Shown here: one piece after another, positions 6,800 through 41,396 of the stretch | How the letters are laid out: every line of letters begins with the position of its first letter | Numbering within the stretch: position 1 is the first letter of the stretch | From: an uncultured Anaerolineaceae bacterium | Lineage (GTDB): Bacteria > Chloroflexota > Dehalococcoidia > Tepidiformales > Tepidiformaceae | Direction: 5' to 3' | Length of the DNA: 43,918 nt | Assembly: GCA_964448165.1 (NCBI GenBank) | Contig: CAYUVT010000001.1 | Span: 10,351 to 54,268 of the forward strand | Program-made: the position numbers and the translations under genes | The notes under the pieces: model-generated | Told to the model about the DNA's origin: nothing | The model's input: only the letters and a program-made list of their open reading frames with translations | Databases searched by the model: none

Positions 6800-7615
6800 C
6801 TACATCAGGAGGTGGGAGGTGCCTACCGCCGCGCCGACCGCGACCAGGTGAGCGACCACAGCGGGCAGGACCAGTCCCGCGGCGAGGGCGAGAAAGCTGC
6901 GCGTTGGAGCTTGCGGGAGGGGCGTCTCGGGGTGAACGAGGCGCGTTAGACGAAGCTCGACGTTCGCTCCGGTGACGCCAGCGGCCGCGGAATGGGCCGG
7001 CGGCAAGGCTGCGGCGGCAATCGCCTCGAAGAGCTCGCGACGGCGCGCGCCATTGCGGATGGCATAGTCGTCCGCTTCGCACTCTGTCCGGAGCGTCTCG
7101 GTCTCAACCGCATTGGCCACCCAGGGCAGAAACGGGAACGCCCGGCCAGTTGCCCGCAGCAGCAGTCTCCAGAGCACGTCCCTGTTCAGCTGGTGCGCCC
7201 GTTCGTGCAGAAGCGCCGCGCGCAACTCGGCATAGCCTAGTTCCCGCTCAGCCCCCTGGCTCACGAAGACTGTGGGCCGCAGCCCACCAGCCGTAAAGAT
7301 CACGATTGCATCCGAAGGAAGCACGCGGTAGTACAGGCCGTCAAGGCGAGCGGGCGTGCTGGTCCGCGTGAGCTGCCGGAGATCGCCGACTCCGCGTGCT
7401 GTCCGGATCAAAGAAAAAAGGAACCCGGCCGCCGGCAGGGCAGACACCAGCGCGAGCGTCAGGAACCCGAAGACCCGCGGGTGCGAGAACTCGATCGAAA
7501 GGTTGGAGAGCCCAGCGGCATAGAGGTGTGTGACCGCGGGATGGACCGTCGCCACCGGCGCAAGCATCAGCGCGACCGCGAGGGCCAGGAGCGCGAGCCG
7601 GCTGCCGCGGCTCAC
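6800..7615 (-). CDS. BlaR1/MecR1-type M56 membrane metalloprotease lacking a sensor domain
   Basis: TM helices plus LLHERAHQLNRD (HExxH). Only 271 aa, so no C-terminal penicillin-binding domain. Start overlaps the repressor stop by 4 nt. Confidence 0.85.
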   Translation of the reverse strand: MSRGSRLALLALAVALMLAPVATVHPAVTHLYAAGLSNLSIEFSHPRVFGFLTLALVSALPAAGFLFSLIRTARGVGDLRQLTRTSTPARLDGLYYRVLPSDAIVIFTAGGLRPTVFVSQGAERELGYAELRAALLHERAHQLNRDVLWRLLLRATGRAFPFLPWVANAVETETLRTECEADDYAIRNGARRRELFEAIAAAALPPAHSAAAGVTGANVELRLTRLVHPETPLPQAPTRSFLALAAGLVLPAVVAHLVAVGAAVGTSHLLM

Positions 7616-8022
7616 GGATCGATGTCCGTCAGGTGGGCCCTGAGCTGAGCCAGGAACGTCGGGTTGAGTCGTTCGGCCTCCAGCAGGAAGGCCGAGAGGC
7701 CGGCATCGCCAAGCTTCACCATCGCGCCCGCCAGGAATTCCCCACGGCGCTCGGAGAACTGCTCACGCGACATTGTCGGTGCGTACACGTGCGCTTTCCC
7801 CTCGCCGCGGCGCGCAACGAGGCCCTTTTTGTGCAGGCGCTGCAGGACCGTAAGGATCGTGGTGTAAGCGAGACCTCTCGGATTACCGACCTCCGCGAAT
7901 ACCTCAGGGGTGGCTAATTCGCCCTTGTCCCACAACGCCGCAAGGACCTGTGCCTCGAGCTCGCCAACGGATATCGACTGTGCAGGCTCTTTCTCCGGGT
8001 TCATGACCTCATCGTAAGGCAT
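7612..8022 (-). CDS. BlaI/MecI/CopY-family winged-helix transcriptional repressor (no Cys)
   Basis: ATG 8022 after AGGAGGAGG. GELEAQVLAALWDKGELATPEV...LAYTTILTVLQRLHKKGLVARR...HVYAP is the family signature. The CopY C-terminal CxCx4CxC motif is absent. Confidence 0.9.
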   Translation of the reverse strand: MPYDEVMNPEKEPAQSISVGELEAQVLAALWDKGELATPEVFAEVGNPRGLAYTTILTVLQRLHKKGLVARRGEGKAHVYAPTMSREQFSERRGEFLAGAMVKLGDAGLSAFLLEAERLNPTFLAQLRAHLTDIDP

Positions 8023-8117: not shown

Positions 8118-8134
8118 TACGACGGGGCGTAGTA
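8118..8134. promoter_or_regulatory. Operator-like dyad S5: TACGAC-N5-GTAGTA between repressor gene and divergent SHOCT/cupredoxin genes
   Basis: Matches the consensus perfectly. Overlaps TAGTAT (+ strand -10 candidate); about 95 nt upstream of the repressor ATG, so a likely autoregulatory site. Confidence 0.65.
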
Positions 8135-10429: not shown

Positions 10430-10446
10430 TACGACTTATCGTCGTA
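10430..10446. promoter_or_regulatory. Operator-like dyad S6: TACGAC-N5-GTCGTA
   Basis: Perfect palindrome, 30 nt upstream of ATG 10476, followed by GAGAGGAG. Confidence 0.65.
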
Positions 10447-13898: not shown

Positions 13899-13914
13899 TA
13901 CGACGGACGTAGGA
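13899..13914. promoter_or_regulatory. Operator-like dyad S7: TACGAC-N4-GTAGgA
   Basis: One mismatch. Heads the minus-strand string small ORF-DUF2934-USP-YHS-GlgP. Confidence 0.5.
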
Positions 13915-16497: not shown

Positions 16498-16663
16498 CCC
16501 TGCAGCGCGCGCCCCTCGCGCCGCTCACGATGGCGACCGTCAGGGGCCAGGTGATGAACGGCCCAGACAGACGACCAGGGAGGCTCCAGCGCTGCATGCC
16601 ACCATCAGCATGCGAATTCGCGGCAACGCCGCCGGACCCGTGACCGTGCTCCATTTGTTCCAT
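16478..16663 (-). CDS. His-rich leader mini-ORF (61 codons), translationally coupled to ppk2
   Basis: MEQMEHGHGSGGVAANSHADGGMQRW... The ATG shares its A with the dyad S8, and GGAG in the dyad spacer serves as SD. Its stop overlaps the ppk2 ATG 16485 (ATGACTGA). Confidence 0.45.
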   Translation of the reverse strand: MEQMEHGHGSGGVAANSHADGGMQRWSLPGRLSGPFITWPLTVAIVSGARGARCRGAVPDD

Positions 16664-16678
16664 ACGACCTCCGTCGTA
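16663..16678. promoter_or_regulatory. Operator-like dyad S8: TACGAC-N4-GTCGTA
   Basis: Perfect palindrome; the spacer on the coding (minus) strand is GGAG. Confidence 0.65.
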
Positions 16679-18958: not shown

Positions 18959-18974
18959 TACTACGGAGGTAGTG
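18959..18974. promoter_or_regulatory. Operator-like dyad S10: TACTAC-N4-GTAGTg, 5 nt after extended -10 TGgTATAGT (18945-18953)
   Basis: Read directly; spacer GGAG doubles as SD for GTG 18975. Paralogous to S11. Confidence 0.6.
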
Positions 18975-24241: not shown

Positions 24242-24257
24242 TACTACGGAGGTAGTT
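24242..24257. promoter_or_regulatory. Operator-like dyad S11: TACTAC-N4-GTAGTt, 5 nt after extended -10 TGcTATAGT (24228-24236)
   Basis: Read directly; spacer GGAG doubles as SD for GTG 24259. Confidence 0.6.
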
Positions 24258-24258
24258 G

Positions 24259-24427: not shown

Positions 24428-24625
24428 ATGCTTCGGAAACTCGCAAACGGGATAGCGTGCGGCCCAGGGCGGCTCTGGCGCTCAGTCCTCGGACACTTCG
24501 GCCCGATCGCCGCGCCGCCGGATGGTCGCCTTGTACCCATCGAAATCAGCGCGAGCGACGACGCCCGCCCGGAGGCGCTCTGCCGACGGGAGGATGAGCT
24601 TGATTGGGGCCACCACAGGCGATAG
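24428..24625 (+). CDS. Conserved hypothetical 65-aa protein (paralog of 19059-19235)
   Basis: ATG after AAGGAG. Shares GxLWR...PIEI...EAL positions with the other copy while the DNA has diverged, which argues for protein coding. Confidence 0.5.
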   Translation: MLRKLANGIACGPGRLWRSVLGHFGPIAAPPDGRLVPIEISASDDARPEALCRREDELDWGHHRR

Positions 24626-24659
24626 CCGGCGGGAGGCCAGCCACCAAGGAGCCACGAAA

Positions 24660-24956
24660 ATGAATGACAGACAGACTAATCTCGGGCCGCTGGAGCGGCT
24701 GGTGCGCGTCGCGGGAGGGGCTTTGCTCGCGACCGTGGGCGTGGTCCTTTTCGTGGCCGCAGATCCCTCGTGGTGGGTGGCGACGACCGAGGTCGCAGCC
24801 ATCCTTCTCGGCATCGATTTCGTCTACACGGGCGTCACGGGCTATTGCCCGCTTTACCACAGGCTCGGCTGGAGCACGCTCCGCCGCTCGCCGACCGTGG
24901 CGCCTCGCTCGGCACCGGGAGCAGAAGCGAAGCCGCCGGCATCCCTGCGCCGCTAG
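24660..24956 (+). CDS. DUF2892 (YgaP-like) membrane protein
   Basis: ATG after AAGGAG. NLGPLERLVRVAGGALL...GIDFVYTGVTGYCPLYHRLGWST is the DUF2892 signature. Confidence 0.8.
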   Translation: MNDRQTNLGPLERLVRVAGGALLATVGVVLFVAADPSWWVATTEVAAILLGIDFVYTGVTGYCPLYHRLGWSTLRRSPTVAPRSAPGAEAKPPASLRR

Positions 24957-25000
24957 CCGCGAATGAAAACCGGGCTAGCCACTCACTGGGAGGTGAACAG

Positions 25001-25249
25001 ATGGCTCGTGTGAAGGTGGTCATGCCGGTCTTCGATCTCTCCTGCGGGGGAGGGGGCTCCCGGCTCGTGGAGCACGTTATCAGGAAGCTGCCGGGCGTCG
25101 CGGACGTTTACGTCAACCCTGCCACCGAGATGGCATACGTTGAGTACGATCCGTCTGGCCTCACCCCAGAGCAAATCGGCGAAGCGATCGCCGAGGCAGG
25201 CTACAAGACCTCGTTGCCGGCTCGGGTGCTGCGAAAGACGGACTCCTGA
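25001..25249 (+). CDS. HMA-fold (ferredoxin-like) protein with degenerate metal site (single Cys, no CxxC)
   Basis: ATG after GGAGG. VKVVMPVFDLSCGGGGSRLVEHVIRKLPGVADVYVNPATEMAYVEYDP...IGEAIAEAGY follows the HMA beta-alpha-beta-beta-alpha-beta pattern, but GMTCxxC is replaced by LSCGGGG. Confidence 0.7.
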   Translation: MARVKVVMPVFDLSCGGGGSRLVEHVIRKLPGVADVYVNPATEMAYVEYDPSGLTPEQIGEAIAEAGYKTSLPARVLRKTDS

Positions 25250-25268
25250 CCGCATATCCGCGCGTCGA

Positions 25269-25727
25269 CTATCTCGCGGTCCGTGGGTCGATCCCTTCGA
25301 GCAGCCCCCTGGGCACACAGGCGCAACAGGCTGAGGATAGCTCGGCATCCGTCCGGGCGAGGAGTTCTTCAAGCACAATCCGCGCACGGTGACGGGCTTC
25401 ATCGCCGGCAAGGCTTGCCAGCGGGTCCTCTCCGCCGAGGGTGCGGTCCCCGCCCCCGGTTGTTTGCACCGACGACATCACCCAGCCAAGGAAGAGCTCG
25501 CTGTCGATCAGCGGGTCTGGCGTTCCCGGTCCGCAGCGCAGGCACCAGACGAGGTCGTCGGGCACGCAGCCGCACAGCGAGTCCGCAAGCTCTTGTGGGA
25601 GAACGTAGGCCAGTCCCTGCAACACACCCTGGAGGAGATGCTCAGCCTGAGCCTGTTCCCTGAGCGACAAGCGTCGCTGCACGGCTGCAACGAGATCATC
25701 GCCTTTTGGCGCCCCGTTCGACGTCAT
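25269..25727 (-). CDS. Cys-rich hypothetical protein (weak DUF2267-like repeats)
   Basis: Start overlaps the korB stop by 4 nt. Contains CGCVPDDLVWCLRCGPG and ACCACVP clusters. Confidence 0.45.
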   Translation of the reverse strand: MTSNGAPKGDDLVAAVQRRLSLREQAQAEHLLQGVLQGLAYVLPQELADSLCGCVPDDLVWCLRCGPGTPDPLIDSELFLGWVMSSVQTTGGGDRTLGGEDPLASLAGDEARHRARIVLEELLARTDAELSSACCACVPRGLLEGIDPRTAR

Positions 25728-26590
25728 CGGAACTGCGCCTTCAGTTTGTCAAAACGAGCACGGGAGGGCCGGGGACGTCCCACGAGGGGCCCGGCCGAGA
25801 GCGCCGGAAGCTGGGCTTCGTAGGGCGGCACGCCCTCCTCCTTGAAGATGATGCCGATCGGGATACGCTCTCCCCATTCCTGGCTGACGGCCTGGGCAGC
25901 GCCGCGGTCGTGCGCCTGATGACCGGTCTCTTCCAGTTTGTAAAGGCGCTCGCGGTACCAGTCGTAGGTGTTGATCCGGTTGAAGACCACGCAGGGCTGG
26001 AGCACGTCGACCAGCGCGTACCCTGGGTGTCGAATCGCCTGCTGCATGAGCCCGGAGAGATGCTGGGGCTCCCCCGCGAACGCGCGGGCGACGAAGGTCG
26101 CGCCCATGGCTAGCGCGAGCGCGACAGGGTTAATCGCGTGTTCGATAACCCCTTCCGGCGAGGTCGTGGTCACCCTGCCCCGGGGCGTCGTTGGGGAATA
26201 CTGGCCCTTGGTCAGGGCGTAGATCTGGTTGTCCTCGACGATGTGGGTGATGTCGGGATTGCGCCTGGCGGTGTGGATGAAATGGTTGCCCCCGATGCCG
26301 TAGGCGTCGCCATCGCCATCGACGACAACCACGTGCAAGGCGTGGTTCGCGAGCTTCGCGCCGGTCGCGACGGCCAGGGGCCGCCCGTGGATCGTCATAA
26401 ACCCGTTCACGCGCATGTAGTCTGGGAGCTTGCTGCCGCAGCCGATGCCCGAGACGACAAGTGCTTCGTGGGGGGCGATCCCGAGCTCCGCAAAGGCGTG
26501 CTTCAGCGCGCTCAGGATGCCGAAGTCCCCGCAGCCCGGGCACCAGGTCGGCTTCACGGGCAGGTCGAACTCTTCCCGCCGGTCAGACAT
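25724..26590 (-). CDS. korB: 2-oxoacid:ferredoxin oxidoreductase beta subunit
   Basis: MSDRREEFDLPVKPTWCPGCGDFGILSAL... and the TPP-binding GDGD...GGNH region. The ATG overlaps the korA stop (ATGTCTGA). Confidence 0.9.
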   Translation of the reverse strand: MSDRREEFDLPVKPTWCPGCGDFGILSALKHAFAELGIAPHEALVVSGIGCGSKLPDYMRVNGFMTIHGRPLAVATGAKLANHALHVVVVDGDGDAYGIGGNHFIHTARRNPDITHIVEDNQIYALTKGQYSPTTPRGRVTTTSPEGVIEHAINPVALALAMGATFVARAFAGEPQHLSGLMQQAIRHPGYALVDVLQPCVVFNRINTYDWYRERLYKLEETGHQAHDRGAAQAVSQEWGERIPIGIIFKEEGVPPYEAQLPALSAGPLVGRPRPSRARFDKLKAQFR

Positions 26591-28397
26591 TGACACCCAC
26601 CTCAGTTTCCGCCGGTAGCGGTTGTTCGCCGGGCTCCACGTGTACATCGTTCTCGCCCGCGAGGACGCGCCGAACCCCGGCGACGATGTCGCTCGGCGCG
26701 AAGGGACGGCCGTCGTAGCTAAGAATGCGGCCATCAAGCTGGTGCCCGGTCATCATCCGGATGAGCTTCGCGAGCTGCCCGGTGAAGTTCTGCTCGACGC
26801 CAATGGTCAGCCCCGCCGAAGCCAGGGCCTGCGAGGCGGCGTCGCTCGGGAACGGCCAGAGGTCGGAGAAATGCAGGACGCCCACGGGTGCATCGCCCTC
26901 GCTGAGGAGGGCCGCTGCCTCACGCGCCGCGCCTAACGTCGAGCCCCAGCAGACGAGCGTGAGCCTCGGCTGATCCGGACCGTAGCGGGTTGGGGGGCGG
27001 ATCGAGTCGTGCAGCGCCGTCTCCTCTTTGCGCATGCGTTTGCGCATCATCGCGACGCGAGTGTGCACGTCCTCGGTGATGTGGCCCTCTTCGGTGTGTT
27101 CGTCGCTTGGCGCCGAGAACACCCCGCCCGGTCGTCCCGGGAGCGCCCGTGGTGAAATCCCGGACGGAGTGATCGCGAAGCGCCGGTACCCTTCACCGAG
27201 GGTATCCGGCGCTTTTCCGTTGAGCAGGCTCCCGCGGTCGATCGCGACCGAAGCGAAACCGAGGGTCTCAGGGTCCGCCGTCTGGAGGCTTCCCGCCAGG
27301 AAGAGATCGCTCAACACGACCACGGGGCACTGGTAGCGATCGGCGAGGTTAAAGGCCCGCCAGCCGGCCTCGAAACACTGCTCGACGGTGCCCGGCGCCA
27401 GGACGATACGCGGGAACTCTCCCTGCCCGGCATGGATCGCGAAGAGGAGGTCCGCCTGCTCCGTGCGTGTCGGCAGCCCCGTCGACGGTCCACCGCGCTG
27501 GACATCGACGATCACCACGGGCACTTCGGCCATGCCCGCCAGCCCCAGGGCCTCGACCATCAACGAGAGGCCGCCGCCCGATGTGGCTGTCATTGCCCGG
27601 GTGCCGGCGAACCCCGCACCGATCGCCATGCACACGGCCGCGATCTCGTCTTCGGCGTGCTTCGCGACGATACCTTCCTTTGATCCGATAGCTGCCAGAT
27701 ACTCGAGGATGGTCGTGGCCGGGGTCATCGGGTAGGCGGCGATGAACCCGCAACCCGCAGCCACGGCACCGAGTGCGAGGGCGTGGTTGCCGTGGAGCAG
27801 CAACCTTCGCTTAGCGTCGCCGGGTGGGACCCGCCACGCTGGATCGGGGAATGCGCGGGCGGCAAAGCGCCAAGCCTCGTGCATGACGGCCAGGTTCGTC
27901 CGGACGACATCTGGTCCTTTGGCGGCGAACTCTTCCCGGATCACCGCGTTGAGGCCCGCGACCGGGAACCCGATCACCCCGGCCAGCGCGCCCAGTCCCG
28001 CGATGTTCGTCATCACGCGGCTGCCGTGGTCCGCGGCGATCCCGGTCATCGGTACCGGCATGGGGCGGAGGTCACGCGATCGCAGCCCGAGCTCATCGAC
28101 GGCCAACGAGGCGTCGTAGATCACGCCGCCGCCGGGCGCCAGCCTGTCCGTGTGGACCTCGACCGTCTCGCGCGTGAAGGCGAGGAGCAGGTCCGGTGGG
28201 TCGCGTTGGGCCTGTCTGGGCTCCGCGCTCGCACGCACCTGGTAGAAGTTGTGTCCACCGCGAATCCGCGATCGGAAATCCTGGGTCCCAAAGACGTGGA
28301 GGCCTCGGCGCGCGAGGGCCCGCGAGAGCGCCGCCCCAACCGATTCGATGCCCTGGCCGGCGTCACCACCGATGCGGATGCTCAGGTCATTGGTCAT
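26583..28397 (-). CDS. korA: 2-oxoacid:ferredoxin oxidoreductase alpha subunit (gamma-alpha fusion type)
   Basis: ATG 28397 after GGAGG. N-terminus IRIGGDAGQGIESVG (gamma domain), then GNHALALGAVAAGCGFIAAYPMTPAT and the rest of the alpha domain. Confidence 0.9.
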   Translation of the reverse strand: MTNDLSIRIGGDAGQGIESVGAALSRALARRGLHVFGTQDFRSRIRGGHNFYQVRASAEPRQAQRDPPDLLLAFTRETVEVHTDRLAPGGGVIYDASLAVDELGLRSRDLRPMPVPMTGIAADHGSRVMTNIAGLGALAGVIGFPVAGLNAVIREEFAAKGPDVVRTNLAVMHEAWRFAARAFPDPAWRVPPGDAKRRLLLHGNHALALGAVAAGCGFIAAYPMTPATTILEYLAAIGSKEGIVAKHAEDEIAAVCMAIGAGFAGTRAMTATSGGGLSLMVEALGLAGMAEVPVVIVDVQRGGPSTGLPTRTEQADLLFAIHAGQGEFPRIVLAPGTVEQCFEAGWRAFNLADRYQCPVVVLSDLFLAGSLQTADPETLGFASVAIDRGSLLNGKAPDTLGEGYRRFAITPSGISPRALPGRPGGVFSAPSDEHTEEGHITEDVHTRVAMMRKRMRKEETALHDSIRPPTRYGPDQPRLTLVCWGSTLGAAREAAALLSEGDAPVGVLHFSDLWPFPSDAASQALASAGLTIGVEQNFTGQLAKLIRMMTGHQLDGRILSYDGRPFAPSDIVAGVRRVLAGENDVHVEPGEQPLPAETEVGVNV

Positions 28398-29688
28398 CGA
28401 GTGCCTCCGAAACTTGCTCGCGAGCGAGGATGGGTGGGTCAGCCGTTGCAGTTGCGGCCGCGGAGGCCTGACTCGACGCGAGCCAGGCGAAACTGACCGC
28501 GGCCATTGCGACGAGGGCAGCTGAAGCGAACAGCACCGCGTTGAACTCGCCGCTGCCAACGGACCAGCCGAGCACCGCCGGGGCGACCACGGCACCGGCC
28601 TCGCCGGCGACGCGATAGGCGCCGGCACCCAGCGTGCGCTGCGGCCCAGGCAACGCGTCAGCAAGGTGCGCCGCCGGAGCTGGCCCGGTCAGACCGCCGG
28701 CCACGCCCAGGAGCAGTGCGGCGATGAGGAATTCAACGTAACTGTCGCTAACCGCCAGCAAGGCCAACGCCACCGCGATCCCCGCGCCTCCGGGCAGGAT
28801 CGCCGCCTTCCGGCCGAATCTGTCAGCCAGCAATCCAGCCGGGTAGAAGACGGTGAGCGACGCGAATCCTGCCAACGCCAGCGCGAACCCGATCTCACCC
28901 GGACCGAGCCCGAGACGCCGGGCGCCGATGAACGGCACCGCGACAAGCTGCGTGCCGATCCGAGAAAACGCCAGGGCAAAGGCAAGGAACCAAAGCGGTA
29001 GGAGGTTGCGTGCGGCGAGAACCTGCCACGATCGTTGCCCTCCGTTGGCCAGGTCGCCGGCGGAGCCGGCGGCCGACTGAATCGGCCGGTTGAGGGCGAG
29101 ATGCAACCAGATGGCAGTGATGCCTGCGATCGCTGCATACAGGACGAAGAGGGTACGGACGCCGAACTCGCCCCCAACAAGGCCTCCCAGGAGAGGCCCG
29201 AGGGCGGCGCCCGCGAGCGCTGCCGCCTGGTACGAGCCGAGCGACCGCCCCGCCTTCCGTTCAGGCGCACCCGAGAGGACGAGGCCCGTGCTGGCCGTTG
29301 CCGAGCTCCCGGCCATCGCGCCTTCGACCATGCAGAAGGCCGCGAGCGTCCAGAATCCGCCCGCGACCGCGCACAGCAGGGCGGCCGGAACGGTGACCGC
29401 CGGACCGGTGACGAGCAGGCGCCGATGGCCGATCCGAGTCGCCAGCCAGGCCGCAGGCAACGCCACAAGGAGCCTCGTCGCCGCAAAGGCTGCGATGAGC
29501 AGCCCCACCAGGGTGGCCGTCCCGCCGAGGGATTCGGCATAGGACGGAAGGATCGGGACGACGAGCCCCATACCGAGGGTGGAGAGGGCCGCGCTCCCGT
29601 TGAGGGCGAGTTGCTGAGGCGACACGTGAAAAGCCCGCGGACCCGGATGCGGAATCGCCGTCTGGATGCCATCGAGCGGGAGCCTCAC
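28387..29688 (-). CDS. MFS transporter
   Basis: About 12 TM helices; the [29 protein letters not shown] loop is typical of MFS_1. GTG 29688 overlaps the ATPase stop (GTGA). Confidence 0.85.
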
Positions 29689-32201
29689 GGGGCGTGGCTT
29701 CCATGAGCCTGCGCCGCGATCGCACCCGTCGCGGTCATCGCAGGCTCTGGCCGCATGCGAGAGAGGCCCGGAAGCTGCGTCCGCTTCAGGAGGAGCGCGT
29801 TGAGCGCGACCAGCAGTGAGCTGCCCGCCATGGACAGAGCCGCGATCTCGGGGCGGAGCAGCAGCCCAATGGCCGGGTAGAACACGCCAGCCGCAATCGG
29901 AAAGGCGATCGTGTTGTAGCCCACCGCCCAGACGAGGTTCTGCTTCATCTTCCGCACGGTCGCGCGGCTCAGGGCGATGGCGCCGATGACGTCGAACGGA
30001 TCGCTTTTCATGAGGACAACGTCGGCGGTCTCCATCGCGACATCCGTCCCGGCGCCGATGGCGATGCCGACGTCGGCCTGGGCGAGCGCGGGCGCGTCGT
30101 TGATGCCGTCCCCGACCATCGCCACCAGCTTGCCCTCGCCCTGCAGTTCCTTGACCTTGTCGGCCTTCTGCCCCGGCAGCACCTCGGCGAAGACGGTCTT
30201 GATGCCCAGCTCGCCGGCGATGCGTTCGGCAGTGGCACGGTTGTCGCCGGTGAGCATCGCCACCTGCACGCCGAGCCGCGTCAGGTCTGCCACAGCCTGG
30301 CGGGAGTTGGGCCGGATGGCGTCGGCGATGGCGATGATGCCCGCGGGCTGACCGTCCAGCGCCGCGTAGACGACCGTGCGGCCGGCGCCCTCGAGGGCCG
30401 CACCACGCTCGCCGAGCCCGTCGAGCGCCACCGCATTGTCGCGCAGCAGCTTCCGGTTGCCGACCAGCACGGTGTGGCCGTCAACGGTCGCACGCAACCC
30501 ATGCCCCGGCACGGCCTCGAACGAGGACGGTTGCGACACCGCAAGGCCGCGCTCCCTGGCGTGATCGACGACCGCCTGGGCCAGCGGGTGCTCGCTCGAC
30601 TGCTCGGCCGACGCGACAAGGCGGAGGAGCTCGGACTCCGCCACCGGGTTCCCGGCAGCGGCAACCTCGACGACCCGCGGCTTGCCTTCGGTGAGCGTCC
30701 CCGTCTTATCGAAGATGATCGCCTGCACTTTGCTGGCTTGCTCCAGTGCGGTCGCGTTCTTGTAGAGGATCCCATTCAGGGCGCCGAGGCCGGTGCCCAC
30801 CATGATCGCCGTCGGTGTCGCAAGGCCGAGGGCATCGGGGCACGCGATGATCACCACGGTGATCGCGAGCGTTAGCGCAAAGACCACGTCTTCGTTGCCG
30901 GGGAAATACCACGCGAGGAATGTTGCCGTGCCAAAGATCACGGCGGCCGCCACCAGCCACTGCGAGGCGCGATCCGCAAGCCGCTGCGCCGGCGCCTTGG
31001 AGTTCTGGGCCGCCTGGACCAGCTTCACGATCTGCGCGAGCGCCGTTTCCGCACCCACCCGCGTCGCGCGGAAGCGGAACGTGCCGGTCGTGTTGATCGT
31101 GGCGCCGATCACGCTGCCGCCGGGCTCCTTCTTCACCGGCAGGCTTTCGCCCGTGATCATCGACTCATCGACGCTCGATTCCCCGTCGACAACCACCCCA
31201 TCCACCGGGATCTTGTCGCCGGGCCTGATCAGGACGATGTCGTCGAGAAGGACCTCCGATGTGGGGACCTCGACGGGCTGGCCGTCACGGATGACGGTCG
31301 CTTTCGCCGGCGCCAGGTCGAGCAGGGCGCGGATCGCATCGGACGCCCCGGCCCTCGCGCGCATCTCCATCCAGTGCCCGAAGAGGACAAACGCAAGGAG
31401 GACCACCGAGGCTTCGTAGAAGACCTCCGAGTCGAAGAAAAACGTGGCGCCGACGCTGAACGCGTAGCCAGCGCCGACGGACAGGGAGACGAGCACGGAC
31501 ATGTCGAGGATGCCATGGCGAAGCGAGCGGGATGCCCCGACGAAAAACATCTGGCCGCCCCAAAAGACAGCGGGCGTCGAGAGGATGAAGAGGAGGATGT
31601 CGTTGGACATGCCGAACGGTGTCGGAATGTCGAGGTCGAAGACATCCGTGAAGAGGGGCGAGTAGAGGAAGACGGGAATCGCGAGCAGGAACGTGAGCCA
31701 GAAGCGGTTGCGCATATCCCGCACCATCGACTCCATGCTCATACCCGCTCCGTGGCCCATCCCATGCGCCATCTGGGCCATCTCGCCGGCGGCCGCGCCT
31801 GTTGCAGCCTCTTCATGGCCGGCATGCATGTCATGGGCAACCGGCTCGAACTCCACCGCTGTTGAGGCGGGCGGCGTATGACCGGCATGAGGTGCTGGCG
31901 CCCCGGCCTCCGGGCCAGCGGCGTGCGCCTTGCCCCCGTGGGGGGCCGCTACGATTTCCGCATCCGGCGCACACACGTGGCGCGGCACCACCTCTCCGCC
32001 GCAGTGGTAGCCGCACTGCTCGATCATGCCCCTGATCTCGGCTTCGCTGATGCGTTCGTCGTCGAACCCGACGACGACCGTGCCGCTCAGGTAGTTCGCG
32101 TTGGCGTGGTGGATCCCCGCGGCGCGGCGGAGAAACGTCTCCAGCGCCGGGCCCGAGCTGCCCCCAAGCAACCCGCGTGCCTCAAGGACCACCTCCTTCA
32201 C
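29685..32201 (-). CDS. P1B-type heavy-metal ATPase, CopB-like (His/Met-rich N-terminus) with atypical CPD in TM6
   Basis: [23 protein letters not shown]6 reads [13 protein letters not shown] rather than CPC or CPH. The N-terminal HMA-like fold lacks CxxC ([12 protein letters not shown]), and the linker is His/Met-rich (HDMHAGH...[16 protein letters not shown]). Confidence 0.9.
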
Positions 32202-33400
32202 GACCGGACTCCATGCTGCTGCTCAGGGGTCGGCACCGGCTCTGCCGGCTCCTCCGCACCCGTGAAGCCGACCTCCATGAACTGCGACCGCGCGGCACGG
32301 ACGGCCTCGATGGCCGGGTGCGGGACGTCCGGCCCAAACTCGTGGGTGATGGGTCGCGTTGTCGCGGGCAGGAACGCCTTCATGACGCCGAGCGCAGCGT
32401 CGGTCTTCGCCATCGAGCGCGAACCGTCGCTCTCGAGACCCGTCAGGGCGCGGATGCAGTCGATCGTCTCCGGGATAACGATCGACTCGTTGTGCACCTG
32501 GAAAGTGAGGTAGACCTCCCGCTCGTCGGCGGCGAGCGCGTCCTCCCAGACGGCCACCTCCCACATATCACCCCGTGGTCGCCCGAGATCGCGCATGAGC
32601 TCGATGACCGAGTTGAGCGCGACGAGGCCGTCGGCCGAGCGCACGAAGGCAACCCGCGGCTCGTCCCAGAGCGCATCGCGCAGCTCGGCCAGCTGTACCG
32701 GCCGCGTGGTCTCGACCATCGCGAAGTGGATGTGGCTGAGATTGTAGGGGCCGGCGCCGGCCATCGTCGTGATGTCCAGGTCCGGGATCACGGTCTGGGC
32801 GTCCGGACCCTGGTGGCTCGGCACCTTCGTCTCCGGGATAACAGTGTTGATCATCCCGGCCTGGTGCGACTCCCATGGGTCCGTGCCGCGGCGCAGGAGG
32901 ACCGCGCGGGCACGCTTGACCCAGCCGTGGCGATGCAGCGCGTGCATCACGCGGGTGAGAGCCGTGGTGTTGCACGAGACGACGCGTGCGAAGTCTCGCC
33001 CGACGGCCCCGGCGTAGTTCGCCTGGGCGACGAACGAATAGCCGATGAGCTCGTGCTTCTCACCACCCTGGAAGATCCCCTTCACACCGGCCTGCTCGTA
33101 ACGCTGCTTGTTGAGGGCGGCGACCTTCTTCGGCGCGCAATCGACGACGACGTCGCTCTCGCGGAGGAGGTCGTCGAGCACACCGGCAACAGGGATGCCG
33201 GCGGCCTCCATCTCCGCCCGGCGCTCTGGTAGGGAGGCGTAGACGGGGTAACCGCGCTCCACCGCCACCCGAATGCGGTAGTCGGAGACGATATCGGCGA
33301 CGCCCGCGAGCGCCATGTCCTCTTGCAGCGCGATGGCATCGGCGACGCGCTTCCCGATGACACCGTAGCCGTTCACGGCTACCCGAATTGTCTTCGTCAT
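32198..33400 (-). CDS. gap: Type II (archaeal-type) phosphorylating glyceraldehyde-3-phosphate dehydrogenase
   Basis: ATG 33400 after [24 protein letters not shown] (Rossmann), catalytic [12 protein letters not shown], and a C-terminal extension of about 60 aa. The stop overlaps the ATPase ATG (ATGA). Confidence 0.8.
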
Positions 33401-33445
33401 GCCTGGTCCTTCCTGTGCTGGCCGGGGGCCCTGGTGCTGGCAATG

Positions 33446-33461
33446 TACTACGGTGGTCGTA
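33446..33461. promoter_or_regulatory. Operator-like dyad S12: TACTAC-N4-GTCGTA upstream of gap-ATPase operon
   Basis: Matches the consensus perfectly; 46 nt upstream of ATG 33400. Confidence 0.65.
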
Positions 33462-33689
33462 TCGTCTCCATCGCGACGCCGGCCCGTTACCCGGATCCAG
33501 CCGCACCGAACGCTGGGCGCTACAGATCCGGCCCGTCGCAATCGACTCAGCGGATGTGGGTTCCTCCGCGCCGAACGCGAGCTGCCGACCGTCGCACGCC
33601 AGCCGCGCCGGTGGGCAGCAAGTGCCGGGCCGTTCCTGGCAGTGCGCCGGCCGCTGCCTCCCTCCCACCGGCTCGCCAGGGCGCGCGGA

Positions 33690-34190: not shown

Positions 34191-34231
34191 GCGTAGCCTC
34201 CATCTGGATGCACGGCCGCACGCCGTCAGTC

Positions 34232-34247
34232 TACTACATCCGTCGTA
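34232..34247. promoter_or_regulatory. Operator-like dyad S13: TACTAC-N4-GTCGTA in divergent intergenic region
   Basis: Matches the consensus perfectly; lies between ATG 34190 (minus) and ATG 34371 (plus). Confidence 0.65.
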
Positions 34248-34962: not shown

Positions 34963-36360
34963 TTAGCCGATGCAACAGGTCATTACCGAGACGTCGCGGG
35001 TGAAGGCCTGCGCAGCAAGCTTTATCGCCTCCGAGTACGTCGGAAAGACGTGCACCGTGTCGATAATGTCGTAGATGCTGAGGCCGTGCCGGATCGCCAG
35101 CGTGGCCTCGTGGATGATCTCGGCGGCATTGGTGCCGCATGCGTACGCGCCACGGACGCGGTTATCCCGGTCGATGGTGAGCTTCACCGCACCCACGGTG
35201 TCCTTCACGGCCATCGCCCTGGGGACCTGGGAATACTGAACCGTGCGGCAGTTGCAGTAGCCGGTGCGGGCCATCGACTCGGCTTCCGTCAGCCCGACGC
35301 CGGCCAGTTGGGGTGAGGTGAAGACTGCCCAGGGCACGGCATCGTAGTTCAATGAGTCGCGCCGGCCGTCAAGCGCGTTGGCAGCGGCCAACGCCCCTTC
35401 CTTGGCCGCCACGGTTTCCAGCGGCATGCGCCCGGTCACGTCACCGGCCACCCAGAGGCCGTGACCGGCCTCGTACCAGTTCGTGGTCTCGATGAATCCC
35501 GTCCTGGTCACCCGTCCACTCGCGTTCTCGAGGCCCAACTCCTCGGTGTTCGCCCGAATGCCTGTCGCCACCAGGATGGCGTCGGCCTCGAAGCAATCGC
35601 TGGCCTGCGGCCCGCACACGACGGTCTTCGGTGGTCCTGGCTGGACCCGTTCGATGCGCATGCCCGTTCGGACCGTGATCCCTTCGGCTTCGAGGGCCTC
35701 CTGCAGGACCGCCGCGATCTCCGGTTCGGCCTTCGGGACGATCTGCGGCAGTGCCTCGAGGACCGTCACCTGAGAGCCGAAGCGGGCGAAGACCTGGGCG
35801 AACTCCAGGCCCAGCGGCCCGCCGCCGATCACGACGAGCTTCCCGGGTGCCTCGTCGAGTTGGAGCGCTTCAACGTTTGTAAGGTAGCCGGCGTCCGCGA
35901 GGCCGGGGATCGGCGGGATGCTGGCCTGGCTGCCCGTAGCGACCAGGATGTGGCGGCCTTCGATCACCTCGCCGCCAACGTCGACTTTCCCCGGCGCGAC
36001 GATGCGGCCCCGGCCCTCCCGGAAGTCCACATGGTCGAGCGACCGGAGGACCTCCTCATAGTTCCGGTGACGAAGGCCTGCTACGAGGGCGTCCTTCTCC
36101 TCGCGAGCGGCTTTGACCGAGAAGTGGCCGTTCGGGCTCGCCGGATGCACCGAGTCGAAGGCGGAGCGCCTGGTCGCCACCAGTGCCTCGGCGATTCCGA
36201 GCAGGTGCTTGGACGGCACGCAGCCAACATTGACGCAGGTGCCGCCGAGCGGCAGCCCCGCGTTGACCATCAGCGCTGTCGCGCCCAGGTCGTTCGCTTT
36301 CGTGGCAGCTGCGAAGGCGGCTGCCCCTCCGCCGATGATCACGAGATCGTAGGCAGTCAC
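34963..36360 (-). CDS. merA: Mercuric reductase (core enzyme, no NmerA domain)
   Basis: DLVIIGGGAAAFAAA, redox-active GGTCVNVGCVPSK, C-terminal vicinal Cys MTCCIG. Confidence 0.9.
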   Translation of the reverse strand: MTAYDLVIIGGGAAAFAAATKANDLGATALMVNAGLPLGGTCVNVGCVPSKHLLGIAEALVATRRSAFDSVHPASPNGHFSVKAAREEKDALVAGLRHRNYEEVLRSLDHVDFREGRGRIVAPGKVDVGGEVIEGRHILVATGSQASIPPIPGLADAGYLTNVEALQLDEAPGKLVVIGGGPLGLEFAQVFARFGSQVTVLEALPQIVPKAEPEIAAVLQEALEAEGITVRTGMRIERVQPGPPKTVVCGPQASDCFEADAILVATGIRANTEELGLENASGRVTRTGFIETTNWYEAGHGLWVAGDVTGRMPLETVAAKEGALAAANALDGRRDSLNYDAVPWAVFTSPQLAGVGLTEAESMARTGYCNCRTVQYSQVPRAMAVKDTVGAVKLTIDRDNRVRGAYACGTNAAEIIHEATLAIRHGLSIYDIIDTVHVFPTYSEAIKLAAQAFTRDVSVMTCCIG

Positions 36361-36818
36361 ACTGGCACCTCCGATTGGGGTTGGATGGACTCGGGCTCAC
36401 GGTCGACGATCCCGACGCAGTCACAGGGATTGAGCGTGAGCAGGCGGTGATCGTCGGGCTCGATGCCGCGGAGCCCGGCCGCGAGCGAGGCCAGCTGTTG
36501 CTCCGCTCTTTCGAGCTCACGTAGCCGCGCCTGGACTCTGGTCACGAGGCCGTCAGTCGCGTCGATCAGCGCTTCGCGCATCTCCCGGCAGCTGCCGTCG
36601 TGGTAGATACGAATCAGCGTCGACATCTCCGCCAGCGAGCAGCCCAGCTCCCGTAGCCGTCGCGCGAACCGGAGGGTTTCCAGGTGTTGGTCGCTGTACT
36701 CGCGGTACCCGCTCGTACCACGAGGCACGGCGGGGAGGACACCGGCCCGCTCGTAGTAGCGGATGGTGTCGGCTGAGAGGCCGGAGGCGTCCGCTGCATC
36801 TCGAATCTTCAATGGCAT
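36357..36818 (-). CDS. merR: MerR-family metal-responsive activator (Hg-type Cys pattern)
   Basis: IRDAADASGLSADTIRYYERAGVL HTH. Cys in DGSCREM and, after the coiled coil, NPCDCVG. The stop overlaps the merA start by 4 nt. Confidence 0.85.
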   Translation of the reverse strand: MPLKIRDAADASGLSADTIRYYERAGVLPAVPRGTSGYREYSDQHLETLRFARRLRELGCSLAEMSTLIRIYHDGSCREMREALIDATDGLVTRVQARLRELERAEQQLASLAAGLRGIEPDDHRLLTLNPCDCVGIVDREPESIQPQSEVPV

Positions 36819-36947: not shown

Positions 36948-36963
36948 TACGACGTGCGTAGGA
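36948..36963. promoter_or_regulatory. Operator-like dyad S14: TACGAC-N4-GTAGgA upstream of FAD oxidoreductase
   Basis: One mismatch; the right half merges into GGAGGAG. Confidence 0.5.
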
Positions 36964-38288: not shown

Positions 38289-41279
38289 TCAGGCGCCAAT
38301 GTACCGCTTCGGGTCAGCCATGAACTTGTCGTGGCAGGCCTGTGAGCAGAAGTAGTAGGTCTTACCCTCGTGCTCCATTCTTGCCGCGGCGGTGTCCGGG
38401 TCGATGTCCATCCCGCAGACCGGGTCCTTGACGGTGGTTGGGGTTGCCATGTCGCTACCTCCCGGGTCAAATGTTGCTTCGCGTGTTGCTTCGCGCACCT
38501 CGACGGTGGGCGCCGAGATGGCATGGCTGCTGGTTGGTCCCGCGAGCGGCGGGACGCGGTAGGTCCTGAGCCGGTTGGCGTTGGCCACAACGGAGAGCGA
38601 GCTGAGCGCCATCGCGCCGGCGGCGATAATGGGGCTCAACTGCCACCCCAGGAACGGATAGAGCACGCCGGCCGCCACCGGGATGCCGACGGTGTTATAG
38701 AAGAATGCGAAGAACAGGTTCTCGCGGATGTTTCGCATCGTGCTCCGGCTCAGCGAGACGGCCGTGACCACGCCTTTGAGCTCACCTGAGATAAGGGTGA
38801 TGTCCGCCGCTTCGATGGCGACATCCGTCCCGGTGCCAATGGCGAAGCCGACGTCCGCCTGGGCGAGGGCGGGCGCATCGTTTATCCCATCTCCCACCAT
38901 GCCGACGAGCTTGCCCTCGTCCTGGAGCCGGCGGACTTCGAGGGCCTTGTCCTCGGGCAGGACCTCCGCAAGGACTCGGCCGATACCCACCTCCCGTGCG
39001 ATCGCCTCCGCGGTCCGCCGGTTGTCCCCGGTGATCATGACCACCTCGAGCCCGAGCTTCTGGAGCGCGGCGACGGCGGACCGGGAATCGTCCTTCACGG
39101 TGTCCGCGACCGCGACCAGCCCGGCCGGCGCTTCGTCGACGGCGACGAGCATCGGCGTCTTGCCTTCGCCGGAGAGGCGCTCGGCGTCCGATTCGAGGGT
39201 CGCGACATCGAGCCCGGCATCGGCCAGGAGCCGCCGGTTGCCTACGAGCAGGCGATGGCCGTCCACCGCGACCCGTATCCCTTTGCCGGTGATCGACTCG
39301 AAGTCGGACGACTCGGTGAGGTGCAGGTCGCGGTCTTCGGCTCCTCGCACGATGGCCTGGGCGAGGGGATGCTCGGACGAACGCTCCGCCGAGGCAACGA
39401 GCTGAAGGAACTCGGCCTCGGCAAGTCCATTGCGGACGACGATGTCGGTCAGCGCTGGCTGGCCGCGGGTGATTGTTCCCGTCTTGTCCAGGATCACGGT
39501 CTCGAGCTTGTGTGCCGTCTCCAGCGCCTCGGCGGAACGGATGAGGATGCCGTTCTCGGCGCCCTTGCCCGTACCCACCATGATGGAGAGCGGTGTGGCC
39601 AGGCCGAGCGCGCAGGGGCAGGCGATGATCAGCACCGAGACGGCACTCACCAGGGCGAACGTGAACACCGGATCCGACCCGAAGTCGTACCAGACCACGA
39701 AGGTGGCGATAGCGATGAAGATGACGGCCGGCACGAAATAGCTGGCGGCCAGGTCGGCGAGGCGCTGGATGGGCGCCTTCGAACCCTGGGCCTGCTCCAC
39801 CAGACGGATGATCTGAGAGAGCATTGTGTCCTTGCCGACCCTGGCAGCGCGGAAGCGAAAGGCGCCCGTCTGGTTGATGGTTGCACCGATGACGGTGTCC
39901 CCCGCCTCCTTGGTGACGGGCAGCGACTCGCCGGTGACCATGGATTCGTCGATGCTGGAGCGCCCCTCGACGATCTCTCCGTCCACCGGGATCTTCTCGC
40001 CCGGGCGCACGAGCACCACGTCCCCGGGCACAACGTCCTCGATTGGCACCTCCTCCTCCCGGCCATCGCGGATCACCCGGGCCGTCTTCGCCTGCAGGCC
40101 GATGAGCTTGCGGATCGCCTCGCCGGTGCCGGCTTTGGCGCGCGCTTCGAGCAGGCGTCCGAGGAGGATGAGCGTGAGGATGACACCGACCGCCTCGTAG
40201 TAGACCTCGCGCAGGTCCTCGGGGAGGAGACCCGGCGCGGCGGTCACGATCAGGCTGTAGGTGAAGGCCGCGATCGTCCCGACCGTGATCAGGGTGTTCA
40301 TGTCGGCGGTGCGATTGCGGAGGATGAGCCAGCCAGTGCGGTGGATCGGCCAGCCGGTGTAGGCCATTACCGGGGCGATGAGCGCGAGCTGGAACCAACG
40401 GTTGAGCAGGAAGTCGGGGATGGAATCGACGCCGAATAGTTCATGGAGCATCACCGTTGCCGCGACGGGCGTCGTGAGAATCGCCCCGAAAGCCACGCGC
40501 CGCGTCAGGTCACGGATCTCGGCCTGGCGGGCGAGCGCTTCGGCGTCCTCGGTCTCCTGCGAGCCCGGCTCGGTGCGCTCTCGGACCCTGTAGCCCGACG
40601 ACTCGATGGCTGACTTCATCTCCGCCACCGAGACCTGCTCGGGGTCGAATGTCACGGTCACCCGCTCTGCGGCGTAGTTCACGTCCACGCGGTCAATGCC
40701 CGGGAGTTGCTCGACAAACGACTCGATGTTCGTGACGCATGTCGGACAGGTGACACCTCCGCCAATCAGCGCGAACTCCACTTGTGCGAGCTCGCCGATC
40801 TCGACCGTCGGGCCTACGCCGACCGCCTTCGCGACCTCGTGCGTGTGGCCGTCCTCCGCGCCGGTGATCGGCGTAGCATCCGCGGCCGGCGCGTCGCCGG
40901 CCATGGCTCCCTCCACGACGATCGTGCCGTGCACCATGTTCATACCGCACGCGAAACCGAACTGCCCCGCGCGGTCCGGCGTGAACTCGACCGATGTCTT
41001 CTGGAATGCCGGGAGCGATTTACTGATCCGGAAGTCCGGGAAAACCACACGGGAGGTGCAGTCGCTGCCTTCCTGGCGGTCGAAGATGAGACGTACCGGG
41101 ACGCCCTGCTGGACATGGATCAGGCTGGGCGAGTAACCGCCCTTGACGGTGACCTCGACCTCCTGGACGCCCCCGCGGAGCTCCGCCCGGCGGGCTTGCT
41201 TTGGCCCGAAGAAGAACCAAGCCAGGAGGGCGATGATGCCGGCGGCCCCGGCGGTTACGAGGATCTCGTCGACGCTCAT
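38289..41279 (-). CDS. copA: Cu(I)-exporting P1B-1 ATPase with TM plus cupredoxin-like domain, HMA domain and C-terminal YHS/TRASH domain
   Basis: ATG 41279 after AAGGAGG. N-terminal TM, then [11 protein letters not shown]...[25 protein letters not shown]; TM6 [13 protein letters not shown]; DKTGTIT; [11 protein letters not shown]-terminus DPVCGMDID...[12 protein letters not shown]. Confidence 0.95.
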
Positions 41280-41379
41280 CGGCTCTGCCTCCTTACCCTG
41301 TAGACCTTGTCTTCGGTCGACTCCTTCGGTCCCGTCGCTCAATCGGACGAGAACGGACACGCCTCGGGCCCTTCCATCG

Positions 41380-41396
41380 TACTACCCCAGGCCGTA
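41380..41396. promoter_or_regulatory. Operator-like dyad S15: TACTAC-N5-GcCGTA upstream of copA
   Basis: One mismatch; about 100 nt upstream of ATG 41279. Confidence 0.45.

Follow-up and report, generated by a model that had tools for sequence, protein, structure and literature searches.

Copper resistance in bacteria is usually explained by efflux, oxidation and sequestration of the metal. For arsenate, a resistance pair formed by a glyceraldehyde-3-phosphate dehydrogenase (GAPDH) and the transporter ArsJ was reportedly described by Chen, Rosen and co-workers in 2016. The type I GAPDH of S. aureus, GapA, is an in vivo target of Cu(I) (PMC6350627). Among the P1B-type ATPases, a subtype with the motif CPD has been noted once in the literature, in clade VIc of the rhizobial Cu-ATPases, which exhibits CPD, YN(X)4P and MSGSS and is uncharacterised (Cubillas et al. 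2017, PMC5552934). Two further systems serve as points of reference: the BlaI repressor of C. thermocellum, which binds ATAGAC-N5-GTCTAT (PMC8457756), and the lxa locus of B. cenocepacia, which comprises genes of universal stress proteins (USPs), acetate kinase, a cation ATPase and cytochrome b (PMC3721108). Here we analyse a stretch of 43,918 nucleotides (hereafter: the window) from an uncultured Anaerolineaceae bacterium of the phylum Chloroflexota (GCA_964448165.1, contig CAYUVT010000001.1, positions 10,351 to 54,268), in which a type II GAPDH, a CPD-type P1B ATPase and a 2-oxoacid:ferredoxin oxidoreductase (OFOR), KorAB, are encoded in one minus-strand operon. The pairing of type II GAPDH with copper-type pumps and the presence of KorAB in copper loci are conserved elsewhere, and this comparative evidence supports the idea, to which we give a probability of roughly 0.45, that the operon is a metabolic arm of the metal stress response, coupling copper export with alternative enzymes of central metabolism.

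Architecture of the six-gene operon

The operon spans positions 33400-25269 of the minus strand in a window with a G+C content of 67%. Its six open reading frames exhibit the codon-position G+C bias of real genes, and the families of the encoded proteins were confirmed by searches with Pfam and NCBIfam profiles:

33400..32198, minus strand: gap, type II (archaeal-type) phosphorylating GAPDH, 400 aa (NF003251, SCNTT)
32201..29685, minus strand: P1B-type ATPase of the 'CPD' subfamily, 838 aa (TGES, CPD, DKTGT, YN, MAGSS)
29688..28387, minus strand: MFS_1 transporter, 433 aa (Pfam/NCBIfam)
28397..26583, minus strand: korA, 2-oxoacid:acceptor oxidoreductase alpha subunit, fused gamma-alpha (TIGR03710)
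26590..25724, minus strand: korB, OFOR beta subunit with the thiamine pyrophosphate (TPP) domain (TIGR02177)
25727..25269, minus strand: Cys-rich DUF2267 protein, 152 aa, 7 Cys

Direct reading of the sequence gave GTGA, GTGA, ATGACCAATGA, ATGTCTGA and ATGA for the five junctions in gene order, i.e. stop/start overlaps of 4, 4, 11, 8 and 4 nt from gap to the DUF2267 gene, exactly the values listed in the initial annotation of this DNA. The six-gene minus-strand operon which it proposed was likewise recovered, with every frame at its coordinates, all genes on the same strand, no intergenic gaps and the order conserved in relatives. One relative, L007 (97% GAPDH identity), has all six genes in the same order, while a Chloroflexi metagenome-assembled genome (MAG), L005 (87% GAPDH identity), has the order gap-ATPase-korA-korB-DUF2267 without the MFS gene. 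Because the junctions overlap and the order is conserved in both relatives, we infer that the six genes are likely to be transcribed as a single mRNA. A scan of the operon revealed no credible intergenic terminator, and a scan of positions 24900-34300 for the sigma-70 consensus promoter gave no match.

The MFS gene is present only in the closest relatives; L005 and all distant loci lack it. The joint occurrence of GAPDH and MFS genes in a resistance region is what would be expected from an ArsJ-like detoxification of oxyanions, in which the GAPDH would make an unstable acyl product from an arsenate-like oxyanion and the MFS transporter would export it. However, no ArsJ model was found among the 25 best of the 36 NCBIfam matches of the MFS protein, and all those listed lie far below their cut-offs; no ars genes are present, and it is the ATPase, not the MFS transporter, that is conserved as the partner of the GAPDH. 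Detoxification of arsenate of the ArsJ type was rejected, the MFS protein being neither ArsJ-like nor conserved, and we give this explanation a next to negligible probability.

The type II GAPDH, the CPD-type pump and KorAB in other genomes

The GAPDH scores 471.7 bits against NF003251 (cut-off 185) and 361.5 bits against TIGR01546 (cut-off 232.9), and its residues 7-340 align to residues 4-336 of the archaeal structure 1CF2 with E = 4e-94. The catalytic Cys143 resides in VVSCNTTAL (the SCNTT motif) and is invariant across the aligned relatives; the active site of E. coli GapA reads SCTTNC, in contrast to SCNTTALT in the operon enzyme. The missing second active-site Cys was considered as a basis of metal tolerance and set aside as a weak hint only, since a Cys is found at position +7 in 23 of 83 type II sequences. 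A C-terminal extension of ~55 aa (residues ~345-400; window 32198-32360, minus strand), with the pattern FLPATT.PI.H... and an invariant His, is conserved in the clade and is found neither in the archaeal enzymes nor in the ~340-aa bacterial forms. Within bacteria this clade is highly conserved, with 75-85% identity across Chloroflexota, Gemmatimonadota, Actinomycetota and others. Type II GAPDH had been called uncommon in bacteria, which does not hold: a scan of one genome per species identified at least 564 confirmed genes, and 35 plasmid records carry one as well.

The pump scores 637 bits against TIGR01525 (cut-off 346) and comprises TGES, DKTGT and YN, together with CPD in transmembrane helix 4 (TM4) and MAGSS in TM6. 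It had been labelled 'CopB-like', but CopB (P1B-3) ATPases are characterized by CPH in TM4 and MSxST in TM6, and this assignment was rejected. Assignment to CopA (P1B-1) was rejected as well: the pump has CPD rather than CPC and GLLGGSSGP in place of CxxC, and reaches 547 versus 1316 bits with NF007952, although it retains the CopA features YN and MxxSS. It is ~45-50% identical to CPH and to CPC pumps alike. CPD, YN and M[AS]GSS are present in each of the 18 ATPases with at least 55% identity, and the CPD relatives share an N-terminus with an HMA-like fold that lacks CxxC, the pattern C[GR][YF]HC.G..VP.H.C, His-rich repeats and a Met/His-rich segment; besides GLLGGSSGP, the N-domain of the operon pump accordingly contains the CGYHC..H.C motif and a His-rich stretch. 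The motifs CPD / YN / M[SA]GSS agree with those of clade VIc, and the plasmid matches to the operon ATPase include the pumps from Xanthobacter, Nitrobacter and Bradyrhizobium plasmids which the study on this clade lists (PMC5552934). The best matches in the PDB are copper pumps (CopA of A. fulgidus and of Legionella), with ZntA scoring far lower. Where CPD pumps are seen independently of gap, their neighbours encode multicopper oxidase (MCO), outer-membrane CopB, DUF305/CopM, YHS, HMA and ICMT proteins. Judging by the motifs, the Met/His-rich N-terminus and the copper-gene neighbours, the pump most likely exports Cu(I), which is our best guess for its substrate. A CxxC copper site is absent both from the HMA-like N-domain of the pump (32201-31990, minus strand) and from a stand-alone HMA protein encoded at 25001-25249 on the plus strand.

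For the genome comparison we used the 78 best species-level loci among the at least 564 type II GAPDH matches. The fetched flanks contain a P1B ATPase in 26 of these 78 loci, and in 17 of the 46 that extend for at least 3 kb on both sides; the pumps of the 26 loci fall into three subfamilies (14 CPD, 7 CPH and 5 CPC). Nine loci, distributed across the CPD, CPH and CPC types, have the GAPDH and ATPase genes adjacent on the same strand. Close relatives of the CPD pump occur on 84 of 72,556 plasmids, and against this background at least 19 of the 30 listed plasmids with type II GAPDH carry both genes, 0.13-24 kb apart. On several Rhodococcus plasmids the ATPase gene precedes gap, with ~140 nt between them; in Chloroflexi and Nitrospirota gap comes first and the two genes overlap or adjoin; in Paracoccus an SDR gene on the opposite strand separates them. 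Such variation in order, orientation and pump subfamily argues against a purely inherited arrangement. To judge from these contexts, the type II GAPDH and the CPD ATPase constitute a widely mobile two-gene module, which forms the core of the operon.

These genes, and those of KorAB, might also be functionally uncoupled and merely hitch-hike as cargo on mobile islands. The high identity of the GAPDH across phyla and the many conjugative plasmids indicate horizontal spread, and many loci share the genes of ABC1 kinase, ICMT, cyclopropane fatty acid (CFA) synthase and cytochrome b, with counts that are phylogenetically linked. On the other hand, the association persists despite changes in gene order, orientation and ATPase subfamily (CPD, CPH, CPC), stop/start overlaps are found in several phyla, and in this window the genes share an operator, so that we regard carriage without coupling as improbable.

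Some of the loci are rich in copper genes. On plasmid pCETAM of Corynebacterium comes (L099), the genes of a multicopper oxidase and CueP are followed by a two-component regulatory pair, which scores under the heavy-metal NCBIfam cut-offs. After this pair, one strand encodes an HMA protein, a CPH-type CopB (CPH and MSLST), a CopM-family DUF305 protein and type II GAPDH, while the genes of a metal-independent (class I) aldolase, a GH65-bPGM fusion, phosphoketolase and a copper-binding four-helix protein are on the opposite strand. The aldolase gene (class I fructose-bisphosphate aldolase, L099 10166-11050) adjoins gapII, the gene of type II GAPDH, in this copper-resistance cluster and fits the logic of metal-independent isoenzymes proposed below. 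A Nitrospirota MAG exhibits the arrangement MCO-CopB(OM)...gapII-CPD ATPase. MerR-like regulators found near gapII in other loci all score below the cut-offs of the CueR, ZntR and MerR models. Separately, a gene of an ABC1/UbiB-family kinase was observed near the type II GAPDH gene in 14 genome loci and on several plasmids (L097, L098, L091, L002, L096, L103).

KorA and KorB pass their subfamily models (KorA 650 bits against TIGR03710, cut-off 483; KorB 363 bits against TIGR02177, cut-off 262), while the score with the equivalog NF008820 stays just under the cut-off (378 versus 402). KorB has retained its four Fe-S cysteines (Cys17, 20, 51 and 200). The identity of KorA is 92-79% with close kin, 61-70% with a small group of homologs and ~57-60% with the ordinary KorA of Chloroflexi, and because of this drop we consider the operon KorA to be a diverged paralogue. 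In the 61-70% group, which comprises Ornithinimicrobium flavum, a gammaproteobacterial MAG and two metagenome contigs, KorA, KorB and DUF2267 form a triad; outside the Chloroflexi lineage (Actinobacteria and Gammaproteobacteria; L104, L105, L106) a gene of a NuoF-like FMN/[4Fe-4S] protein often follows it. The DUF2267 variant has four invariant cysteines (CxC..WCLRCGP), always follows KorAB of this type, and may be an electron acceptor or provide a metal site. In the gammaproteobacterium, CusRS-MCO-CopB-cytochrome c-DUF411 and Rieske-HMA-GlgP-PGM flank the triad on either side, with a CPD-type ATPase a few kb off. A metagenome scan with DUF2267 yielded two loci only, and the plasmid search revealed no close relatives of KorA. 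By their gene contexts, two metabolic modules are tied to copper loci independently of each other, and in this Chloroflexi lineage they are fused.

A recurrent dyad and its candidate regulator

Upstream of gap, 46 nt from the ATG, there is a dyad, TACTACGGTGGTCGTA, at 33446-33461 of the plus strand (minus-strand reading TACGAC-CACC-GTAGTA). This 6-4-6 repeat has 5/6 pairs, and a -10-like hexamer TACATT (33447..33442, minus strand) overlaps its 3' end. A generic inverted-repeat finder did not detect it; the 4-nt-spacer (N4) motif with up to two mismatches, by contrast, occurs at 7 sites in the window, compared to 0.46 expected. With the half-site TAC[G/T]AC, 7 sites were found with a 4-nt spacer, 8 with a 5-nt spacer and 1 new site with a 7-nt spacer, whereas other spacings gave 0-3 matches each, all overlapping loci already found. 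There are thus ~16 copies between 2776 and 41396. Fourteen of the 16 are intergenic in a window of which 83% is coding, and they precede gene starts by 15-520 nt, in most cases by no more than ~300 nt. The operator copies (from the motif scan, with no strand assigned; that of the gap operon also from orthologous loci) and the two candidate regulatory genes are:

2776-2794: operator copy (N7), BNR protein
4469-4485: operator copy, sortase
6612-6628: operator copy, M50-CBS
6800..7615, minus strand: short BlaR1-like M56 membrane protease (HERAH) without a sensor domain, candidate signal transducer
7612..8022, minus strand: BlaI/CopY-family winged-helix repressor (Penicillinase_R) without a C-terminal Cys motif, candidate regulator
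8118..8134: operator copy (N5), 97 nt ahead of the BlaI/CopY-family gene
10430..10446: operator copy (N5), ahead of orf109
13899..13914: operator copy (N4), ahead of a Usp gene
16663..16678: operator copy, perfect TACGAC-N4-GTCGTA, PPK2/cytochrome b divergent region
16953-16969: operator copy (N5), second in the PPK2/cytochrome b divergent region
18959..18974: operator copy (N4), flanks paralogous to those of the site at 24242
24242..24257: operator copy (N4), ahead of the YgaP-HMA genes
33446..33461: operator dyad of the gap operon, TACGAC-N4-GTAGTA
34232..34247: operator copy (N4), divergent DUF2934/orf202 promoter region
36948..36963: operator copy (N4), between merR and the gene of an FAD oxidoreductase
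41380..41396: operator copy (N5), 20 nt ahead of the gene of the second copper ATPase

The dyad reported in the initial annotation is therefore real, as a 6-4-6 repeat with a motif that recurs in the window. It is not dedicated to this operon, being one of ~16 copies, and it is no operator reserved for metal genes, as copies stand also at the genes of USPs, PPK2, M50-CBS and other proteins. In the orthologous dyads of L007, L090 and L091 the half-sites are kept and the spacer varies (CACC, CGCC, GAGA), and L091 has an additional dyad between bPGM-GH65 and the phosphoenolpyruvate carboxykinase (PEPCK) gene. Neither L005 nor any of the distant loci examined has the motif, which suggests that the regulator is lineage-specific; a search for recurrent dyads in distant loci was dominated by GC-rich noise. 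On the evidence of the motif, the window appears to be one regulon of ~14 transcription units under the shared operator TAC[G/T]AC-N4/5-GT[A/C]GTA, and since the copies are common to metal and stress genes, the operon would be co-regulated with copper, mercury and general-stress genes.

The BlaI/CopY-family protein (81.9 bits with Penicillinase_R; 38.6 bits with CopY_TcrY, cut-off 122) and the M56 protease are the probable regulator of this regulon. The dyad located 97 nt upstream of the repressor gene suggests autoregulation, and the pair may control the island by proteolytic signalling. No BlaI or M56 homologs were found in the other fetched loci. MerR is unlikely to act on the dyad, as merR has a distinct palindrome of its own: the perfect 7-1-7 repeat TTGGAGTAACTCCAA at 36835-36849, just upstream of merR, is probably the operator of MerR. 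Two further observations concern promoter regions. The segments 18940-19010 and 24225-24300 (plus strand) are paralogous, with the layout CTATAGT..TACTACGGAGGTAGT..GGTGCAAC.ACACGAGCA.GATG, and both run into a possible small open reading frame. A DUF2934 gene (33690-34190, minus strand) with its own operator copy precedes the gap operon in the window as well as in L007, L090 and L091.

Other genes with links to metals are found on both sides of the operon:

24522..24956, plus strand: YgaP-like/DUF2892 membrane protein (GYCPLY), from profile search
25001..25249, plus strand: small HMA-domain protein with SCGGGG for CxxC, converging on the 3' end of the operon
34963..36818, minus strand: merR-merA pair; MerA with CVNVGC and a C-terminal CC
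38289..41360, minus strand: second P1B ATPase, CPC type, with cupredoxin, HMA and YHS domains; same regulon by its operator copy

MerA scores 481.6 bits against TIGR02053 (cut-off 454.5) and contains GTCVNVGCVPSK and ...MTCCIG; a specific role of Hg in the gap operon finds no support. The trio of DUF2892, HMA and ATPase genes is present also on Rhodococcus plasmids. The window further encodes a cupredoxin and CcdA/TlpA, as well as three Usp proteins, PPK2, M50-CBS, phosphofructokinase (PFK; an ATP-PFK, 9333-10304), GH65 and GT4, and we interpret it as a 44-kb accessory metal and stress island. Its alpha-glucan phosphorylase (10960-12801, minus strand) is fused to a YHS domain, putatively copper-binding, and so is the TreT-type trehalose synthase of Rubrobacter tropicus (L001 1799-3232); these fusions hint at a metal-linked control of carbohydrate enzymes. 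The cytochrome b gene (17062-18159, plus strand) is interrupted near 17405-17450, where a TGA stands in frame at 17413-17415 and the conserved PRELNWVVG is read in another frame for ~45 nt, whereas the relatives have one intact 368-aa gene; the gene may have decayed to a pseudogene, or the interruption may stem from recoding or from an error in the local assembly.

Metal resistance, growth arrest and the described systems

Under the reading that we put first, the 8.2-kb cluster would be one translationally coupled operon within a 44-kb accessory metal and stress island that forms a single regulon, and would have arisen by fusion of the mobile module of type II GAPDH and CPD pump with the copper-associated module of KorA, KorB and the four-cysteine (Cys4) DUF2267 protein and by the gain of the MFS gene. 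Upon derepression of the island, the cell would pump copper out and concurrently make alternative enzymes for lower glycolysis and for the oxidation of 2-oxoacids, which would replace metal-sensitive housekeeping versions, namely type I GAPDH and the lipoate-dependent 2-oxoacid dehydrogenases, and might also provide repair processes with NAD(P)H or reduced ferredoxin. Cu(I) as the substrate, the regulator's identity and the replacement of housekeeping enzymes are all inferred. A metabolic arm of resistance had been suggested for this operon already: the comparative data sustain the part that links GAPDH to copper-type export (26 of 78 loci and at least 19 of 30 listed plasmids) and place KorAB in a copper locus, while the suggested role of the two enzymes as bypass isoenzymes is hypothetical.

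Several points weigh against this reading. The type II GAPDH keeps Cys143 and KorB its four Fe-S cysteines, so that neither enzyme is obviously metal-proof. The regulon includes also the USPs, PPK2, M50-CBS and sortase and its repressor lacks the Cys hook of CopY, so the inducer is maybe not a metal. The substrate of the CPD pump is a guess, the motif being uncharacterised (PMC5552934), and KorAB and the MFS protein accompany the GAPDH-pump operon in this narrow lineage only. Many of the loci come from MAGs and related plasmids, and the counts are not fully independent. Finally, on alpha- and betaproteobacterial plasmids the GAPDH-pump pair occurs with genes of phosphoketolase, acetate kinase and CFA synthase and with no other copper genes.

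This last context would agree just as well with a survival island of the hypoxia or dormancy type, whose enzymes (type II GAPDH, OFOR, phosphoketolase, acetate kinase, lactate dehydrogenase (LDH), PFK and glucan phosphorylase, alongside USPs and PPK2) would give an aerobe fermentative, oxygen-independent ATP and redox balance in growth arrest. The pump would then serve ion or copper homeostasis, Cu(I) being more toxic without oxygen, or the metallation of oxidases, and metal would not be the inducer. The locus of Rubrobacter tropicus comprises M50-CBS, gapII, LDH, CBS, ATPase, phosphoketolase, acetate kinase and TreT, again with no further copper genes; the Acidovorax and Paracoccus plasmids hold, besides phosphoketolase, acetate kinase and CFA synthase, a metallo-beta-lactamase (MBL) hydrolase and nucleoside-salvage-like genes (thymidine-phosphorylase- and PRPP-synthetase-like); and the three Usp genes, PPK2, M50-CBS, PFK and GH65 of the window recall the gene content of the DosR regulon and of the B. 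cenocepacia lxa locus (PMC3721108). However, this likeness is by gene class only, and no regulator of the DosR, FNR or Anr type was seen, the motifs having been compared by eye at the gap upstream region only. Moreover, the same modules are found inside clear copper loci with MCO, CopB, CueP, CopM and CusRS, and the pairing of the type II GAPDH is specific for copper-type pumps, of which it involves three subfamilies. We consider such an island less probable than the metal reading, but its most serious competitor.

The carbohydrate genes allow for another explanation, by which stress would induce anabolism: an NADPH-using, gluconeogenic GAPDH would, together with PEPCK, feed the synthesis of trehalose and glucan against desiccation or osmotic stress, and the pump would merely share the island. 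An anabolic, NADP-linked function has been described for archaeal GAPDHs (PMC12525153), the operator of the window stands also at PEPCK and bPGM-GH65 in L091, and GT4, GH65 and glucan phosphorylase are encoded in the window. This leaves unexplained why the GAPDH gene so closely adjoins or overlaps copper pump genes in different phyla, and the neighbours PFK, phosphoketolase, acetate kinase and LDH indicate catabolism. A metagenome protein (P0037) that might have been taken for a GAPDH-PFK fusion, which we rejected, is a truncated PFK with read-through into gapII, so that in that contig PFK lies directly upstream of gapII. We consider the anabolic explanation very unlikely.

Returning to the metabolic arm of metal resistance, it can be sharpened into a mobile, cross-phylum target-replacement module, in which a copper-, silver- or mercury-insensitive type II GAPDH, belonging to another fold lineage, would keep glycolysis running while the pump lowers cytosolic Cu(I), and which further metal- or lipoate-independent isoenzymes (KorAB-DUF2267, class I aldolase) would join in some lineages. 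Alternatively, the GAPDH might itself bind copper and hand it to the pump, which has no CxxC chaperone domain. We advance target replacement tentatively and regard it, in this specific form, as rather doubtful. If true, a single repressor would control, on islands of metal resistance, a spare pathway of central carbon metabolism as well.

On plasmids and islands of at least seven phyla, copper pumps are accompanied by two sets of genes of central metabolism, and in this genome both sets share one operator with the copper pumps. Should the enzymes prove to be metal-tolerant substitutes, this would be target replacement directed at a metal, which is otherwise a strategy of antibiotic self-resistance, and would reveal which metabolic steps copper breaks in vivo. 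The locus provides handles for this: the CPD subfamily of P1B ATPases, the Cys4 DUF2267 partner of KorAB, and a regulon of ~14 promoters with a defined operator. In the searchable library no literature on the association of type II GAPDH with the pump was found, which is absence of evidence only, and the searchable literature gave no description of the KorAB-DUF2267(Cys4) module in copper loci or of the ~14-promoter dyad regulon. All the parts belong to known families; new are the cross-phylum module of type II GAPDH and copper pump, KorAB-DUF2267(Cys4) in copper loci and the ~14-promoter regulon.

Compared part by part with the described systems, the pump shares with CopA (P1B-1) and CopB (P1B-3) the P1B core (TGES, DKTGT, CPx, YN(X)4P, MxxSS) and a His/Met-rich N-terminus, but Asp replaces the second Cys of CopA or the His of CopB; its TM6 has MAGSS where CopB has MSxST, and its HMA-like domain has CGYHC..H.C instead of CxxC. 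The GAPDH resembles the archaeal type II enzymes (Methanothermus fervidus 1CF2; Sulfolobus 1B7G) in its equivalog-level scores, end-to-end alignment to 1CF2 and SCNTT, but its type is bacterial, horizontally spread and plasmid-borne, has the ~55-aa C-terminal extension and adjoins copper pumps. KorAB has the fused gamma-alpha subunit and the TPP/[4Fe-4S] beta subunit of the two-subunit OFORs (Sulfolobus-type; KorAB of M. tuberculosis), with the subfamily models passed; in contrast to these, it is diverged, is followed by the Cys4 DUF2267 protein (elsewhere often also by the NuoF-like protein) and is found in copper loci.

As in the BlaI/BlaR1 and CopY systems, a winged-helix Penicillinase_R protein is combined with an M56 HExxH membrane protease and with TAC-starting inverted-repeat operators, one of them upstream of the repressor's own gene; unlike in these systems, the pair lacks the beta-lactam sensor domain and the CxCxxxxCxC hook of CopY, and its regulon has ~14 promoters instead of one or two. 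With the DosR regulon and the lxa locus the window has in common an accessory USP-rich island with a cation ATPase, cytochrome b, sugar kinases and an M50-CBS protease, the acetate kinase likeness coming from relatives of this island; again by gene class, it differs from both in that it has also merA, two copper pumps, and cupredoxin, HMA and YHS proteins. Finally, as in the GAPDH-ArsJ pair, a GAPDH gene stands beside that of a membrane transporter in a metal(loid) resistance operon, but there a type I GAPDH is combined with the MFS protein ArsJ, whereas here a type II GAPDH is combined with a P-type ATPase, and the MFS protein is not ArsJ-like.

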